A stretch of DNA of 64,000 nucleotides from a phage, in NCBI GenBank assembly GCA_024614665.1, contig GCA_024614665.1_4861.1; one strand, written 5' to 3'. A program made the position numbers and the translations under genes. Within the stretch, counting starts at the first letter, position 1. Each line of letters starts with the position of its first letter. Under the pieces are notes generated by a model. The model had not been told where the DNA came from, made no database searches, and saw only the letters and a list, made by a program, of their open reading frames with translations. Shown here one piece after another: positions 954 to 50,494 of the stretch.

Positions 954-3137
954 TCACTTTGGTAATTGGTCTAGCCGGAAGCCATCCATGTCACGGTCGG
1001 CCACGCGCTCGGCAAGCGTCCACTCCTCAAATGACGTCCGCACACGGACAACGTCGATAGGCGGCTGTACCATATCGACCACAACATCCTGCTCGACCTT
1101 CACACGGATACCAGGGTAGACATTCATCCGCAACTTAATACGTTGCGGGATTGCCATTTCCTTTATCACGGGAGCGACAGGGATGGGCTTATCCGTCGTC
1201 ATGAATGAACTACGGCTCACACGCTGCACGTCTGTCAGAGGGTAAATGATATTTGTTGTATCGGCAGCCTCTGTGAGAATATCATCCAGAATCGGGATGA
1301 CTGGGTCGGTGACATCGTAGGTGTCAGAACCCATACGTGCGGCAAAATGGACAGTATACGACGAGAGTTTCGTCATTAACCGCACCATCGCGCGTTGTAT
1401 TTCAGCTTGTGAGACAGACGCACGTGTTTCCAGATTAGTGGCCACGTTTAGAGCGTCGGTGGCGATGTCCTGCCAGGTTTCCGCGGAGACTAACTCGTAA
1501 TCAAAACCAAACGTTTTAAAGAACTCGTCGTAATCGCGGTAAGGTAGGTCAAGATCGCACTTATAGTCACGGTAATGGTAGGTAAACAGCATTGTGCCGG
1601 CAGCACGGTCGGCTAGCTTGTGTCGATTATACGAGTAACGGTAACGACGACGCTTCTGCACCATGATTTCGCTAATTTCATCGTACAACTCATCTGCAGA
1701 CATCAAATTACCGATAACTTCATGATGCGTGTCCGTGTAATAGTTAATCAACGCATTAAAACGGCCGGGCCATGAACTTGGCAGATGCTGTTCCATCTCA
1801 TCAAAACCAACCCAGCGTTTGATTAGCACACCAAACACATTCCACACCGGGATTTTATCCAGTGCTACGCCAGAATAACCTTTGAAGCTCGCATACAAGA
1901 ACAGTGCCAGCAGCTCTTTTGAAGTGAGCTTTAGCGTGTCCCCGTTCGTTGGGTTAAGAATTTCGTGGTAAATGTTGTACTGTCCACGTGCCACGATATG
2001 CATCCACTCGTTGAACAAGCCATGCATAAATTCCCAACGTTCGATGGCCTCTGGGTCAATCGCCGTTACCTCAACTAACTTCGTTGGCAGGTTCGGATAC
2101 TGCGTCAAGCTCAAACGCCGATCGAGGTCTTCCTGATAGTCAGGTTCGTGCACTGGGTTATTGTACGCCAGATTGATTTCTTTCTGGATGATGTCAGTTG
2201 TGCTAACAATGTCCAGGTCACGGCCCGAGTCACGTTCAGTATAGTTAAGCGACGACTGGTAGCCGATCGGGAGTGGTGTCAGGTCATCGTCGCTGCCCGT
2301 CGTCGGGTCGTGAATCTGCTGGGCGACCTTATATCCAACAGCAGGCATACCCCAACCTGTCAGCAGGGTGTCAATCATCCAAGTAAAGATTTCTTCCTTA
2401 CCAGAGTTACGTTCCCAGTAACGGATATTGCGATACAGTGTGAATTTCTGCTTGAGGGTCAGGTACGGCATGAACTCGTGCAGTTCTTGGTGCGAAGCCA
2501 AGAACTCGGTCACGTAGTAGGAGTGCGTTTCGGTCGTAAACTGTAATCGTTTGCGGATGTACATGATAAGCCCCGGCCACACCGGGTACTGCTGCATGTA
2601 AAAGGCCAGTACGAAACAGTCGTTGTGAACTTTCCAGCCATCGGCCATGAAACGTACATGTGCCGCACGAATAAAGTTCTCAATATGTGTAATTAACGAC
2701 GTCTCCTGCGGTTCAACTAAAGCAGGATCGTAATACAAAATTGAGCAGTCATCGACACGTATCGCGTATGCAACATCAATCGGATTGAAAGTGCCGCGAA
2801 TGTATACTGCGTAGTCCGGATACTCGGCGATTAAGTCATCGATATACTCCGGGTTAGAACGATATACGTTTGAGGTCTTTTTATGACGGGAGAGGTTCTG
2901 CGTCGTTAACTCTATCTGCTCTTGCGTGTCGAGTGACGTAATGTATATCGGCTTGTCGATTGCATGTCGTTTACCTGCTAAGTGTAGGTAATACCGCCAC
3001 GTCTCACGGTTCTCGGAAACGAAACCGCCGTTTTTGGTTATTGCCAGGTTCATCTGTTGGGCGATGCTCTCTGATTTGACAATCAGGGATTTCGCTAACT
3101 GGATAGCCTGGTCACGAAAAATGTTAAATCTCTGCAT
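954..3137 (-). CDS. hypothetical protein (about 727 aa)
   Basis: Long ORF; track start at 3149 is a non-ATG codon, first ATG is 3137; head-to-head with plus gene starting 3149. Confidence 0.6.
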   Translation of the reverse strand: MQRFNIFRDQAIQLAKSLIVKSESIAQQMNLAITKNGGFVSENRETWRYYLHLAGKRHAIDKPIYITSLDTQEQIELTTQNLSRHKKTSNVYRSNPEYIDDLIAEYPDYAVYIRGTFNPIDVAYAIRVDDCSILYYDPALVEPQETSLITHIENFIRAAHVRFMADGWKVHNDCFVLAFYMQQYPVWPGLIMYIRKRLQFTTETHSYYVTEFLASHQELHEFMPYLTLKQKFTLYRNIRYWERNSGKEEIFTWMIDTLLTGWGMPAVGYKVAQQIHDPTTGSDDDLTPLPIGYQSSLNYTERDSGRDLDIVSTTDIIQKEINLAYNNPVHEPDYQEDLDRRLSLTQYPNLPTKLVEVTAIDPEAIERWEFMHGLFNEWMHIVARGQYNIYHEILNPTNGDTLKLTSKELLALFLYASFKGYSGVALDKIPVWNVFGVLIKRWVGFDEMEQHLPSSWPGRFNALINYYTDTHHEVIGNLMSADELYDEISEIMVQKRRRYRYSYNRHKLADRAAGTMLFTYHYRDYKCDLDLPYRDYDEFFKTFGFDYELVSAETWQDIATDALNVATNLETRASVSQAEIQRAMVRLMTKLSSYTVHFAARMGSDTYDVTDPVIPILDDILTEAADTTNIIYPLTDVQRVSRSSFMTTDKPIPVAPVIKEMAIPQRIKLRMNVYPGIRVKVEQDVVVDMVQPPIDVVRVRTSFEEWTLAERVADRDMDGFRLDQLPK

Positions 3138-3148
3138 CGGAGACCCCA

Positions 3149-5890
3149 ATGGAAGATATTAGTAAATTAACGGGCGACCCCGCGGTAGCTGCCATACTGC
3201 GTAAGTCCACGAGCCCGTCGGCTCAGCAGCAACGCGGTAAGCGTGAAGATGGCGGTGTTACACCAACCCGTACAGAACTCACAGGTATCGCGAGTAGCCG
3301 CATTCGCACCGTTAAAAATGCCGAACGTATCTTTGATGCGCTCCCTGAGTTAGAGGTCATTGTTACCATCGCGACCTCCTCGCTCCTGTCCACAAAAGAT
3401 TTGATTAACACCACGCTGATTTACGACAACGTGGCGGATATCCCGATCGACCTGCGTCAACAGTTGTTAGAACCCGTGCGTGATTTCCATGACCACACGC
3501 GCCAGTTGCCCAACAAACTGTATCAGTGGATTTACGATGCACTGAAATCCAAAGGTGCGAGCCCAGTGTTGCTGATTTCAGATACCGGATTCGATGAACT
3601 CTTCGGCTTAAAGCCGTCTGTTGCAACCGAATCACTGCGCCGGAGCCAATCTGACTTCTTTGAACGTCAGTTGGGTATTCTAGGCAAGATTGGCGGTGAG
3701 AACAAACCGAAGGTTGGTGTAGAAAGTATTCTGGGCCGTGCACGTGGCGCTGACAAGCCCACCAAGCCACAAACCATTAAACTTAACTTTGCATCAGCCC
3801 CTAACAGTCCGTTTAAAGCAGACGGTATGTTAGCTTCCCTGGATATCGTTATCACCGACAACCCGCGTATTACCCTGTTACCAGAGGCTTATCGCCGTGT
3901 GGCACAGGAGAATGCTCGTACCGGCCTGTTCGGGCAGTTAGAGCAGTACGCATATGAACAACCTTCTACACCGACAGGTGCGTCAGCGTATAACGCTGAC
4001 CAGTTCACCGACAGCGAACAAGAGAAGGCAAAACTCGGTTTAATCAACATTGGCGACCTCAACGAAGCGTACCAGAAAACGCCTGAGCAAAAGCTTTACG
4101 GCGAAGTACCGAAGATGAGTTTCTCCGATGCTAACAAAATCGAATACACGGAACGATTACTGCCAGCAGAGTCCACACTCCCGCTCGTTATCGGCGACGA
4201 TGTTCGTAACCCCATAGGTTATCTGGCCATCGTTGACGAAATGGGTAACTTCATTAACTCGCGCTCCACACTTTACGGTGATGCGAACTTCATGAACTAC
4301 CTGAACAACGACGGTATGGTGGATTCAACAATCAACCGTGCAAATCTGGGGATGGGCAACACAACCCGAATCACACCAGACATTGCTAACCGCTTAACAG
4401 CGCGTTATGGTGAGATTGCTGAAGATCAGCTGACAAAAGCGTTGGGTGAGGCGTTGGGGGGTGCTGAGATTAGCATGACGGTAACCGAAACGTTCAGCCG
4501 TATCATGTTAGCGCGCCATCTGGCAAAACGTCATACGCAGGTTATTTATATTCCTGCGGAAAACCTTTGCTACTTCGCCACGGACTTTGATGAAGATGGC
4601 ATCGGTGTATCTATTACCGAACGTTCGTTCGTTATCTCTACTGTCCGTATGGCACTGTTGTTCGCTACCATGAACTCTGCGGTGTTAAACTCTGCGCGTC
4701 ACATGCAGTACGACATTGAGTTGGCACCAGATGACATGAACGGTCAGAAAACAATTGACCAGTTGAAAACAGACATCATGAACTCCTATAACCGTCGTCA
4801 ACCGATGTGGGGGGACATGAACGACACCTGGGCAATGACGACAAACGCAGGTATTGCGTTCAACGTTATCGGTAACGACTACTACGGTAGTACCAAAGTG
4901 TCTGTGTCGGATACCACGCCGGATTATAAATATCCGGATAAGGATTTCGACGAAGGTCTGTTACGCCGTACTTGCCATATCGCTGGTGTTGACCCTGACC
5001 TGGTAATGACCCCGGAGAACATCGAATTCGCTTCACAGATTTTCTCTAAATCGTTGCTGGTCACGCAACAAGTTGTTAAGAAGCAAGAGATTCTCTCTAA
5101 GCCACTGACGCGTTATGTAGTCAATGGGATGTTGGCCTCCCCGTCGTTACAATCAGCGATGATTAAAATCATTGCAGAGTATATCAATGCTAACGGCAAT
5201 GGGATGACTACTGACCAGGTTACGAAAAAGGTCTCTGAGTATCTGGCTGCCTTCATCAACGGTATGAAAGTAACCTTACCACCACCAGACACCTCAGCAG
5301 CAGCTTCGCAGATGGAGTTGTTCGATAAACGTACTGAGTTCTTTGAGAAGCTGGCTGATCTGGTTGTAACGGATGACATTGCTGCGCAACTTCAGCAGGA
5401 AGGCATCTCGATGGACCCGAACGATCTGAAGACGATGATCAAATCCTTCTATACGCGCAACTGGCTGCGTAAACAAGGCATTGAAACCGACTTCTTCGAT
5501 CTGGTTTACGACGATAAATCTCGTCAAGACAACATTACCATGATGACTGATGAAGCGATGGCTGCTTCGAAGACGCTGATTCAACTGGCGAAACGCTTTA
5601 CAGGTCGTCTGGAAACGTTGGCGAAAAATGCTGACCTTGACCCTAACGAATCTGCTGGCGGATTCAGTGGTGGTTTTGATGCGGGCGGTGACACCGGTGG
5701 CGGTGAAGGAGATCTCGGTGGTGGGGGTGACGATGATTTAGACCTCGATCTCGATACGGATGACGGAACCGACGGGGATAGTACAGGGGAAACGACTGAG
5801 TCGACCGAAACCACGGATACAACCACCGAGGGAACGGAAGGCACAGAAGACGAAGGGACTACCGACGACAACCCAGACAACGTCCTCTAA
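3149..5890 (+). CDS. hypothetical protein (913 aa) with acidic Gly/Asp/Thr-rich C-terminal tail
   Basis: ATG with GGAGA about 9 nt upstream; ORF ends immediately before a canonical intrinsic terminator. Confidence 0.65.
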   Translation: MEDISKLTGDPAVAAILRKSTSPSAQQQRGKREDGGVTPTRTELTGIASSRIRTVKNAERIFDALPELEVIVTIATSSLLSTKDLINTTLIYDNVADIPIDLRQQLLEPVRDFHDHTRQLPNKLYQWIYDALKSKGASPVLLISDTGFDELFGLKPSVATESLRRSQSDFFERQLGILGKIGGENKPKVGVESILGRARGADKPTKPQTIKLNFASAPNSPFKADGMLASLDIVITDNPRITLLPEAYRRVAQENARTGLFGQLEQYAYEQPSTPTGASAYNADQFTDSEQEKAKLGLINIGDLNEAYQKTPEQKLYGEVPKMSFSDANKIEYTERLLPAESTLPLVIGDDVRNPIGYLAIVDEMGNFINSRSTLYGDANFMNYLNNDGMVDSTINRANLGMGNTTRITPDIANRLTARYGEIAEDQLTKALGEALGGAEISMTVTETFSRIMLARHLAKRHTQVIYIPAENLCYFATDFDEDGIGVSITERSFVISTVRMALLFATMNSAVLNSARHMQYDIELAPDDMNGQKTIDQLKTDIMNSYNRRQPMWGDMNDTWAMTTNAGIAFNVIGNDYYGSTKVSVSDTTPDYKYPDKDFDEGLLRRTCHIAGVDPDLVMTPENIEFASQIFSKSLLVTQQVVKKQEILSKPLTRYVVNGMLASPSLQSAMIKIIAEYINANGNGMTTDQVTKKVSEYLAAFINGMKVTLPPPDTSAAASQMELFDKRTEFFEKLADLVVTDDIAAQLQQEGISMDPNDLKTMIKSFYTRNWLRKQGIETDFFDLVYDDKSRQDNITMMTDEAMAASKTLIQLAKRFTGRLETLAKNADLDPNESAGGFSGGFDAGGDTGGGEGDLGGGGDDDLDLDLDTDDGTDGDSTGETTESTETTDTTTEGTEGTEDEGTTDDNPDNVL

Positions 5891-48473: not shown

Positions 48474-48857
48474 TTAACTTGCATCGTGTGGAACAGTCAC
48501 CCAATCGTGCCATTTTTCAGAGTAAAGACGATAAGCCATCTTTGGATTCTGATCGACACTACCGGCCGGGTTCTCATTCCACAACACGTACGTATATAAC
48601 TCGTACGACGAAGTGTTACGGATACTTGACGTGCGGGTGACGTAGTACGTCAACCCGCGTTGGTTAAGGAACAGGCCGCTGTAATGTTCAGTGACCATGT
48701 AGTAGTGAAACGCCTGGTTGATAGTGGCGTCGGTACAGAGTTTCTTAGCGACGTCTTCTACGCCGGGATACGCCTTTAGAATGTTTTCGAGAAAACTTGC
48801 TAAAGTCATTCCGATGTAGGGTGGCAGCGGCTCTGCTGGACGCGGCGGAGTGAGCAT
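48474..48857 (-). CDS. hypothetical protein (127 aa)
   Basis: ATG 48857 preceded by AAGGAAATCA; overlaps 3' end of helicase ORF out of frame. Confidence 0.45.
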   Translation of the reverse strand: MLTPPRPAEPLPPYIGMTLASFLENILKAYPGVEDVAKKLCTDATINQAFHYYMVTEHYSGLFLNQRGLTYYVTRTSSIRNTSSYELYTYVLWNENPAGSVDQNPKMAYRLYSEKWHDWVTVPHDAS

Positions 48858-50451
48858 GTGATTTCCTTACAACGTAGGGGGATGTCGCGATACGGAACGA
48901 CAATACGACATCCTTGAGTGATTTCTGGCGGGCATTCAGGTAATTGCAATGCTTCGGTACGTTATACGCATGGAATAACCACACCGTTGGGTCTATTTCA
49001 CCCCATTCGTTGTGGAGAATCTTACGTGGACGACCGGCCATCTGTTCGTTCAGTTGCTGGTCTTCTACCGGGGTTGAAATGTACATGTGTACCAACCCAG
49101 GTTTATCGACCGCAGTCCCCGCTTTCCCCGGTGTGGAGATAGAGAAGTCTGCTTGGATAAAGTCGTCATACGAATCGCCTGCATTATATTTCGCCACCAT
49201 CAACGGATGGAATACAGGGTCACGCGATAACTTATCTTTCACATACTCGGTAAAGAACTCACACATCGCTACCGTAGCAAAGAGTATCAAACATTTTTGG
49301 CCAGGTTGATACCGTTTAAGGAACGATTTCTCAACCACATCCCAGATCATGTTTGCGTATTCTAAATGCATGTTCTCTTTAATCAGCTTCCCTTCGAAGA
49401 GTTTGTGGTTATACGGCGTCATCTTCGATGCCCACCACGCAAACTTCTTATCATCCAGTCGATAGTACAACGCCTTCACGTCAACTACCGGAACGATAGG
49501 GATACTGATACGGCACTCCATTGGGAAACGCTCCATGTACCGTTCGGCGATAAACGCTTTACTGGAGCCAGGAGTTAACGTTGCCGACATTTCAATGCTT
49601 GGCGGCGGGTTAAGCATTACACCTGCCATGTAGACCAGGTGGAAATGCTCATGTACCTCATCCATTCCCAACAACCCGATACCCAGCACGTCGTAAAACG
49701 TATCCAGGTCCACAGGGTTAGTTGCAGCTGTGTTGATATACTCCTTCAAGAAACGTTGTAGCGTCACCGTAGGGAGGATTATCAGCTTAATCCCACGTCT
49801 ATCCAACTCACCCGATTTACCCATCTCCAGGGCCTCGTAGATGGCCTGTACGCCGGTACAAACCAGCACGCCATCGCGAGATTCCCTTAAGCCAGTCGGG
49901 TCATCAGTGGTATCGAATATCCACTTCGGAACATAGGTCGGTCGAATGATAAGACCTGTCCTAACGCCCTTCTTAACAACCACTTTCATGAAGCTCTTAG
50001 ATTTCCCGGCTCCGGTCTGGATGGCAAATATCGTCTGTTGTCGACCTGGGGTCATCGCCGCTTCGCTAACTTCGTTCTGATAATAGAAACGTGAGTTAGG
50101 ATCGGTGACCTCGAGGTCGAATCCGTAATTATCAAACGTGCACTTATAAGGTGTTCCTCGTACAGGATGGTGCTCTGTTAGCTTGTACTGAAAAGCGTAT
50201 TCAATTGCTGCTCGTTGGAGGATATGTTTAATCTTCTCAGCGAACACTTTATGGAAAATGAACGTCCTTAAAGACGGAATGTGAGCGTAGTACGCGTCAC
50301 CGCGTTCCGTAGTTATTCGTCCATGTTGCTTGCCCATCTTTGGGGCGTGCATATTCTCTTCGGCCCACGCGAGTATGGCCCTTTCAGCCTGGCGGATAGG
50401 GACTTCAACCCGTACCCCCATACTCGTGTAAGTCATTTGAATTTCTACCAT
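48745..50451 (-). CDS. SF2 helicase (DExH-box)
   Basis: Walker A QTGAGKS, motif II LLGMDEVHE, motif III SAT, motif VI QMAGRPRK; track ORF extends to 50508 by reading through the upstream terminator, ATG at 50451. Confidence 0.6.
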   Translation of the reverse strand: MVEIQMTYTSMGVRVEVPIRQAERAILAWAEENMHAPKMGKQHGRITTERGDAYYAHIPSLRTFIFHKVFAEKIKHILQRAAIEYAFQYKLTEHHPVRGTPYKCTFDNYGFDLEVTDPNSRFYYQNEVSEAAMTPGRQQTIFAIQTGAGKSKSFMKVVVKKGVRTGLIIRPTYVPKWIFDTTDDPTGLRESRDGVLVCTGVQAIYEALEMGKSGELDRRGIKLIILPTVTLQRFLKEYINTAATNPVDLDTFYDVLGIGLLGMDEVHEHFHLVYMAGVMLNPPPSIEMSATLTPGSSKAFIAERYMERFPMECRISIPIVPVVDVKALYYRLDDKKFAWWASKMTPYNHKLFEGKLIKENMHLEYANMIWDVVEKSFLKRYQPGQKCLILFATVAMCEFFTEYVKDKLSRDPVFHPLMVAKYNAGDSYDDFIQADFSISTPGKAGTAVDKPGLVHMYISTPVEDQQLNEQMAGRPRKILHNEWGEIDPTVWLFHAYNVPKHCNYLNARQKSLKDVVLSFRIATSPYVVRKSHAHSAASSRAAATLHRNDFSKFSRKHSKGVSRRRRRR

Positions 50452-50467: not shown

Positions 50468-50494
50468 CAAAAAAAGAGGGGCGCAAGGCCCCTC
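50468..50494 (-). terminator. intrinsic terminator / attenuator (minus strand)
   Basis: Plus-strand A-tract then stem gaggggc/gcccctc; follows stop of beta'-like gene and overlaps RBS region of helicase gene. Confidence 0.5.

Follow-up and report, generated by a model that had tools for sequence, protein, structure and literature searches.

The helicase-gp37 junction

The genes considered here all lie on the minus strand of the window, which is the whole 64,000-nt stretch of phage DNA analysed (assembly GCA_024614665.1). The window shares 99.1% identity with Salmonella phage SPN3US (genus Seoulvirus), where the equivalent genes are gp36 (helicase, ACQ60_gp230), gp37 (ACQ60_gp229), gp38, and gp39, located 3' of two RNA polymerase subunit genes, gp34 and gp35. 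The features of the junction are listed below.

48745..50451, minus strand: helicase gene (SPN3US gp36 / ACQ60_gp230), 568 aa, SF2-type; from the open reading frame (ORF), the annotated SPN3US start, and PHROG 16
48474..48857, minus strand: gp37 (ACQ60_gp229), 127 aa; from the ORF, PHROG 9835, mass spectrometry, and an AlphaFold2 model
48745..48857, minus strand: out-of-frame overlap of 113 nt, with the gp37 frame at +1 relative to the helicase frame
48863..48868, minus strand: gp37 Shine-Dalgarno sequence AAGGAA, within helicase codons V528-R529-K530 and 5 nt upstream of the ATG
48862..48882, minus strand: ancestral helicase C-terminus '...TSPYVVRK' (last residue K530), from alignment; outgroup helicases end here
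48801..48854, minus strand: overlap, proximal half (gp37 codons 2-19); here the helicase reading is a passenger free of constraint, forming a Ser/Ala-rich linker
48748..48800, minus strand: overlap, distal half (gp37 codons 20-37); helicase tail SKFSRKHSKGVSRRRRRR, with purifying selection on both frames
48748..48765, minus strand: six consecutive Arg codons CGG CGT AGA AGA CGT CGC, an alternate-frame reading of gp37 codons P31-A37
48745..48747, minus strand: helicase stop TAA, made by gp37 codons GCT AAG (A37-K38); its position is homologous wherever the extension occurs

The gp37 start ATG occupies 48857..48855 on the minus strand, and its frame is closed by a TAA at 48869..48867, 12 nt 5' of that ATG. 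An earlier note on this DNA had reported a 113-nt out-of-frame overlap between the helicase and the next gene, and this proved exact, the shared bases being 48745..48857. The note had also considered overlaps of such length unusual in this genome. That impression is correct: of the roughly 50 junctions annotated in SPN3US (19.8-69.7 kb), none but this one overlaps by more than 26 nt, the size of the second largest. The helicase tail, SHAHSAASSRAAATLHRNDFSKFSRKHSKGVSRRRRRR, comprises 38 residues (S531-R568) with 12 K/R against 1 D/E. Its proximal half reads HAHSAASSRAAATLHRND in the helicase frame, and its end, as predicted from the ORF, includes ...FSKFSRKHSKGVSRRRRRR. The distal 18 codons, SKFSRKHSKGVSRRRRRR, hold 10 K/R; in gp37, the same half makes up helix 1, a loop, and the start of helix 2, including AYPGVEDVA. 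With so many K/R residues, the tail would be cut into small pieces by trypsin.

The helicase gene and its core

Residues 5-529 of the 568-residue helicase match PHROG 16 'DNA helicase' with E=1.5e-56, and a Walker A motif, GAGKS, is found at residues 147-151. Both marks of an SF2 DNA helicase, a significant profile match and Walker A, are therefore present, with no Pfam-A match at E<=0.01 and no PDB sequence match. The suggestion that the frame runs on past recognisable helicase sequence was borne out, as the PHROG match covers the 568-residue protein only up to residue 529, where distant orthologs end. A mechanically assigned helicase start, TTG 50508, was rejected as spurious because it lies 5' of both the RNA polymerase gene stop and a terminator-like hairpin. 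The start is ATG 50451 (568 aa), as annotated in SPN3US. The strong hairpin, GAGGGGC-cttgc-GCCCCTC followed by T7, is located at 50469..50494 on the minus strand, with the RNA polymerase beta' stop (50498) on one side and the helicase ATG (50451), itself preceded by GAGGGG, on the other.

Several relatives carry insertions within the helicase gene. In EC001 (L002, 1650-4394), an in-frame insert of 346 residues interrupts the Walker A P-loop between GAGK and S/T, at a site corresponding to window position ~50001 on the minus strand, after helicase K150. The insert begins with Cys, ends with His-Asn, and contains Hint and LAGLIDADG domains, and is therefore an intein with a homing endonuclease. 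Judging from match length, Lh1B, JN03, SPLA3, and SPLA5c apparently have a similar helicase insert. The Kwan helicase also contains a LAGLIDADG insert, and the window and SPN3US represent the empty site.

The core is homologous to that of the 'RAD2/SF2 helicase' of nucleus-forming jumbo phages, namely phiKZ gp075, PhiPA3 gp068, 201phi2-1 gp131, and EL gp40, with 25-35% identity over the C-terminal 200 residues. These orthologs belong to the same PHROG family and likewise adjoin an RNA polymerase beta/beta' gene. However, they end at the K530 position without a basic tail, unlike the helicase of the window. In several records the helicase ortholog is called 'terminase large subunit', and elsewhere 'DarB-like antirestriction' or 'transcript termination protein' (records with such names: OR413581 and OR413585, i.e. 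SPLA3 and SPLA5c; pEt-SU, pTD1, phiKT1028, ZPAH34, and Vibrio phage 2 TSL-2019). These names are probably misannotations, carried from record to record, of the phiKZ gp075-type SF2 helicase.

The gp37 protein

The gene downstream specifies a small conserved protein that is always encoded directly 3' of the helicase. Mass spectrometry of two SPN3US particle preparations identified the 127-aa gp37 by 6 spectra apiece (Thomas et al. 2016, PMC5105663 Table 5), and it is therefore translated. Neither tailless particles nor gene-241 amber mutant particles, the latter being without virion RNA polymerase subunits, yielded the protein (PMC5105663).

In the AlphaFold2 model of gp37 (pLDDT 80, pTM 0.76), residues 1-18 form a disordered Pro-rich N-terminus, residues 19-56 form three helices, and a beta-sheet follows. 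In this model, the passenger half of the overlap falls in the disordered N-terminus, and the dually constrained half covers helix 1, the loop, and helix 2. When the PDB was searched by fold, no solved structure matched significantly, and profile and sequence searches found no family annotation beyond PHROG 9835. T4 UvsW.1 is a small protein encoded beside the UvsW helicase. As an analogue of gp37 it was rejected, there being no significant PDB sequence or fold match and UvsW.1 being absent among the listed matches. Additionally, a tblastn search of phage records with gp37 gave no match to the genes downstream of phiKZ gp075-type helicases. A search of a large protein collection recovered only 22 gp37 clusters.

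Conservation of the overlap among related phages

Eighteen related phage loci were compared, the helicase stop and the opening of the small-gene frame being located mechanically in each. Sixteen belong to enterobacterial-phage genomes of five genera (Seoulvirus, Erskinevirus, Machinavirus, Wellingtonvirus, and Derbicusvirus), and the other two are from Vibrio phages. Among the 16 genomes, identity over the helicase C-terminus falls to ~52%. The homologous gp37 ATG lies 113 or 116 nt inside the helicase ORF in all of them (16/16). The helicases end in SRRRRRR, SRGRRRR, SRRRKRR, RRRGRRR or GRRGRRR, with a homologous stop position. The gp37 Shine-Dalgarno sequence gtAAGGAAa is present in 14/16; the two Wellingtonvirus members have AGGAG (Kwan) and a weak match (pEa11).

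Four metagenomic lineages for which DNA was available (L027-L030) all show 113/116-nt overlaps together with basic helicase ends, in this case PRRRKRRR, SRRFRRRK, PRRRNRR, and PRNRNRRR. Their gp37 motifs differ (PDVENVVDK, PDVLDVVNR, PDAETAVKK, and PEIETVAVK). AAGGAA precedes gp37 in three of the four, and L028 has only GAGGA.

The earlier note had offered a genuine overlapping-gene arrangement as one option and a sequence error with an artefactual tail as another, proposing a comparison of helicase C-termini in related phages and regarding recurrence of the overlap with a conserved Arg-rich tail as the mark of a real feature. Both recur across the 16 genomes and the four metagenomic lineages, so the first option is upheld and the second falls. 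A sequencing or assembly indel that artificially lengthens the helicase ORF would be hinted at only by the low-complexity look of the tail. Against it, the same frame relation, stop, and tail occur in at least 20 independently sequenced genomes or contigs spanning ~50-100% helicase identity, and the probability of such an error is practically negligible. Real sequencing errors look different. In SPFM1, SPFM5-10, SPFM12, SPFM14, SPFM15, and SPFM20 (LR535901, LR535903-LR535908, LR535911-LR535913, and LR535917), the 2.3-kb query was matched only as 23-29 short pieces, and many 'hypothetical protein' calls are split. This fragmentation indicates indel-ridden assemblies, in contrast with the clean overlap of the window.

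The annotation of gp37 varies widely. The 113-nt overlap is already annotated in SPN3US, EC001, STsAS, and Stratton. In 8/18 relative records inspected, gp37 has been dropped (SPFM4, MET_P1_082_240, and pEa_SNUABM_29) or shortened so that the overlap is avoided (pEa_SNUABM_11, Phobos, CR5, pSal-SNUABM-04, and pEa_SNUABM_8). In a further 4/18 (Asesino, ChrisDB, Kwan, and Machina), it is annotated from non-conserved downstream codons. The gp37 N-terminus is conserved as M-(L/I)-x-P-P-x-P-x-x-P-x-P-P-Y, and the divergence of codons 2-16 falls mostly at wobble positions (s1 0.32, s2 0.23, s3 0.61). On sequence comparison, the true start of gp37 is the conserved ATG within the helicase gene.

Origin of the helicase extension

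Outgroup helicases end in '...YV(V/I)RK' and adjoin the gp37 start where gp37 is present, the junction being either a 7-nt gap or a 4-nt ATGA. The gap is found in Vibrio phages pVa-21 and pVp-JHP1101, which have a gp37 homolog (~33% identity) directly 3' of the helicase. Their helicase end '...SKFIIK*' aligns with '...SPYVVRK' of the window (K530), and gp37 starts 7 nt on. The ATGA overlap is found in the metagenomic sister lineage L025/L026, in which the helicase has 532 aa and ends in '...PYVIRRNK*', and gp37 is ~60% identical. Their gp37 homolog lies at 3001-3381, and the gene order RNA polymerase, helicase, gp37, gp38-like, gp39-like is conserved. L025/L026 represent an undescribed relative of the SPN3US-like phages, and their ATGA junction is likely the ancestral-like state. 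In RTH11, Goslar, and PhiPA3 (gp068, annotated as similar to phiKZ gp075), the helicase also ends at the residue-530 equivalent. The 38 residues S531-R568 are a derived extension because the outgroups end at ~530 and the PHROG match ends at 529.

The overlap junction differs from the ATGA junction by a single nucleotide in spacer length. From the conserved AGG codon to the ATG, the spacer measures 7 nt (AAATCAC) in the window and 8 nt (AGAAATAA) in L025. The 8-nt spacer makes the helicase frame run AAT AAA TGA, which ends it, whereas the 7-nt spacer gives TCA CAT GCT... and carries it on in the -1 frame of gp37 to the TAA contributed by GCT AAG. A 1-nt change is therefore sufficient to create the overlap. 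Throughout the clade of SPN3US, Erskinevirus, Machinavirus, Wellingtonvirus, and Derbicusvirus, the spacer has one nucleotide fewer than that of the ATGA lineage, and the helicase frame thus runs 38 codons further, to the TAA at A37-K38.

In a neighbour-joining (NJ) tree with the Vibrio phages as outgroup, L025/L026 are sister to all lineages with the extension, a topology that agrees with a single origin. The monophyly of the extension clade receives only 54% bootstrap support, and a single origin is therefore not firmly shown. The ancestral non-overlap state is kept in the outgroups, with a polarity that rests on this NJ tree and its 54% support. That the overlap is real and derived can be held with high confidence. 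There is also good reason to regard it as a genuine same-strand, out-of-phase overlap in which the helicase lost its original termination point and was extended into the 5' part of gp37. In the proposed course of events, the extension would have arisen once, by a 1-nt deletion or an equivalent stop loss. The alternate frame would by chance have been open and Arg-rich, as the gp37 G-V-E-D-V-A codons start with G, and the basic tail would then have been retained by selection.

Translation across the junction

The canonical 4-nt ATGA overlap for translational coupling is present at this very junction in L025/L026. In the window, by contrast, the helicase frame does not stop until 113 nt beyond the gp37 start. 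This precludes termination-reinitiation coupling, and gp37 must initiate at its own Shine-Dalgarno sequence. Thus gp37 would be translated through independent internal initiation, with helicase-translating ribosomes crossing its start site.

A programmed frameshift was another option raised by the earlier note; as gp37 is in the +1 frame, a +1 shift within the overlap would instead fuse both proteins. That frame is open from 12 nt 5' of the gp37 ATG, and the window has a tandem AGA AGA shortly before the helicase stop. In E. coli, +1 shifting can be triggered by rare Arg codons in tandem. However, AGA AGA is variable, being replaced by CGA AGA, AGA AAG, AGA GGA, and CGA GGA in other lineages, and no X_XXY_YYZ heptamer occurs in the last 50 helicase codons of any of nine lineages tested (9/9). 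Neither a conserved slippery sequence nor a stimulatory RNA structure was thus found, no stable structure being predicted over 48725-48880 (fold z=-0.41). Moreover, every lineage preserves an ATG for gp37 itself, most of them together with a Shine-Dalgarno sequence, and gp37 is a separate gene in the outgroups and was published as a 127-aa product (PMC5105663). Such a frameshift is thus very improbable, and the option was discarded.

Selection on the two reading frames

Selection was analysed with nine lineage representatives, the control being the same alternate frame read through non-overlapping parts of gp37 and the helicase. Codon-position divergence within the overlap tracks the gp37 frame (s1 0.24, s2 0.22, s3 0.43 across the nine lineages), and gp37 is therefore the dominant constraint. 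The wobble divergence of gp37 is 0.43 inside the overlap versus 0.56 outside. Over the whole tail, alternate-frame identity is 0.488, compared with 0.354 +/- 0.028 in controls (maximum 0.419 in 66 windows of comparable primary-frame identity).

The two halves of the overlap behave differently. In the proximal half, alternate-frame identity is 0.340 against a predicted 0.347 (z=-0.1), and the wobble positions of gp37 codons 2-16 are as free (divergence 0.607) as those outside the overlap. The proximal ~19 extension codons drift as a passenger of the Pro-rich N-terminus of gp37, without selection. In the distal half, alternate-frame identity reaches 0.637 against a predicted 0.369 (z=5.0), exceeding the maximum (0.505) of 83 control windows. 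The distal 18 codons are under purifying selection in both frames, a state not found in the proximal 18 codons.

The basic residues were further evaluated by simulating synonymous codon choice with the gp37 protein and local codon usage of each lineage held fixed. The last 7 helicase codons contain 5-6 Arg (6 in the window) versus ~2.1 simulated, in 9/9 lineages with P=0.001-0.024 each. In the four metagenomic lineages, the last 8 codons contain 5-7 R+K versus 1.7-3.0 simulated (P=0.0006-0.008). The per-lineage P values are not independent because the lineages share ancestry. Over gp37 codons 29-37, helicase-frame divergence is h1 0.30, h2 0.025, and h3 0.22, the pattern left by conserved Arg codons. 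The helicase codons here are of the form NGN because the gp37 G-V-E-D-V-A codons all begin with G. Arg survives the substitutions seen. Changes from CGG to AGG and from AGA to CGA leave both proteins unaltered, and CGT to CGC occurs via V/A or G/A swaps in gp37.

Two further candidates were set aside during this analysis. The lack of alternate-frame stops looked suggestive as evidence of selection, given a control stop frequency of 5-6.6%, but with the Pro/Ala-rich sequence of gp37 the frame is open by chance with P=0.3-0.7 per lineage in the simulation. RNA structure as the cause of wobble conservation was likewise dismissed (z=-0.41 for folding of 48725-48880).

The codons GTA GAA GAC GTC (gp37 V-E-D-V, codons 33-36, window 48753..48764) are identical, including wobble positions, in pVa-21 and pVp-JHP1101. 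As these Vibrio phages (L014/L015) have no overlap, the wobble conservation may partly have another cause, and the match may reflect chance or a nucleotide-level constraint.

Possible role of the basic tail

The tail might be translated and yet be a functionless by-product of stop loss, its conservation coming from gp37 amino-acid constraints and from 5' nucleotide constraints such as codon choice, initiation, and GC. The proximal half behaves exactly like such a passenger, and divergence in the overlap as a whole follows gp37. The chance openness of the alternate frame and the VEDV codons shared with overlap-free Vibrio phages also agree with this neutral account. It does not explain, however, why distal alternate-frame identity stands above all control windows, or why Arg/Lys is kept in 13 lineages, four of them with a different gp37 motif and each well above simulation. 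Furthermore, the substitutions seen preserve Arg (CGN to AGR at h1; CGT to CGC via V/A swaps), and there is no notable RNA structure. On balance, neutral read-through is unlikely.

A functional basic tail is the more probable case, despite the absence of selection in the proximal half of the extension, which speaks against it. From its composition, the tail most plausibly serves the helicase as a disordered appendage with a nucleic-acid-binding or electrostatic role. Arg-rich basic tails are known from nucleic-acid-binding proteins, and the helicase resembles them in its terminal 5-6 Arg and its 10 K/R in 18 residues, borne on a DNA helicase. The likeness is one of composition only, there being no common sequence family. 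A more far-reaching proposal, to which roughly even chances may be given, is that a single-nucleotide frame change gave rise de novo to the tail as a functional peptide module, in which poly-Arg was recruited (e.g. for DNA binding or helicase targeting) and now constrains the evolution of the helix 1-loop-helix 2 region of gp37.

Relation to known systems and significance

Overlaps formed by stop-codon loss between contiguous genes in different frames are known as class 'a' of Delaye et al. (2008, PMC2268670), and viral overprinting has been reviewed in PMC8227390. As in such cases, the two genes lie on the same strand in different frames, and the terminus of the upstream gene has moved downstream into its neighbour. 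The new stretch is of low complexity, biased, and basic, the outgroups retain the ancestral state, and both frames are partly constrained. Unlike classic overprinted viral genes, the new sequence is short, being only a 38-residue C-terminal appendage, rather than an entire protein, of which half is without selection. The arrangement fits the established stop-loss class and is an ordinary example of a known route to overlaps.

The overlap itself is not new, having been in GenBank annotation since the SPN3US record; literature searches found no discussion of it or of its dual-coding constraint. The main value of the analysis is for annotation, as sequence comparison places the gp37 start at the conserved ATG and the helicase end at the Arg-rich tail across the clade. 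It also provides a small, clean example of dual coding in which ancestral-like and derived states are extant, although it opens no major question. A single base change, synonymous in gp37, would remove the tail, making this a testable peptide born of a frame change in a model giant phage. If the de novo origin proposed above is true, the junction would offer a clean and experimentally tractable case of a functional peptide arising de novo, in a jumbo phage open to genetic manipulation and with the gap, ATGA, and 113/116-nt states all extant.
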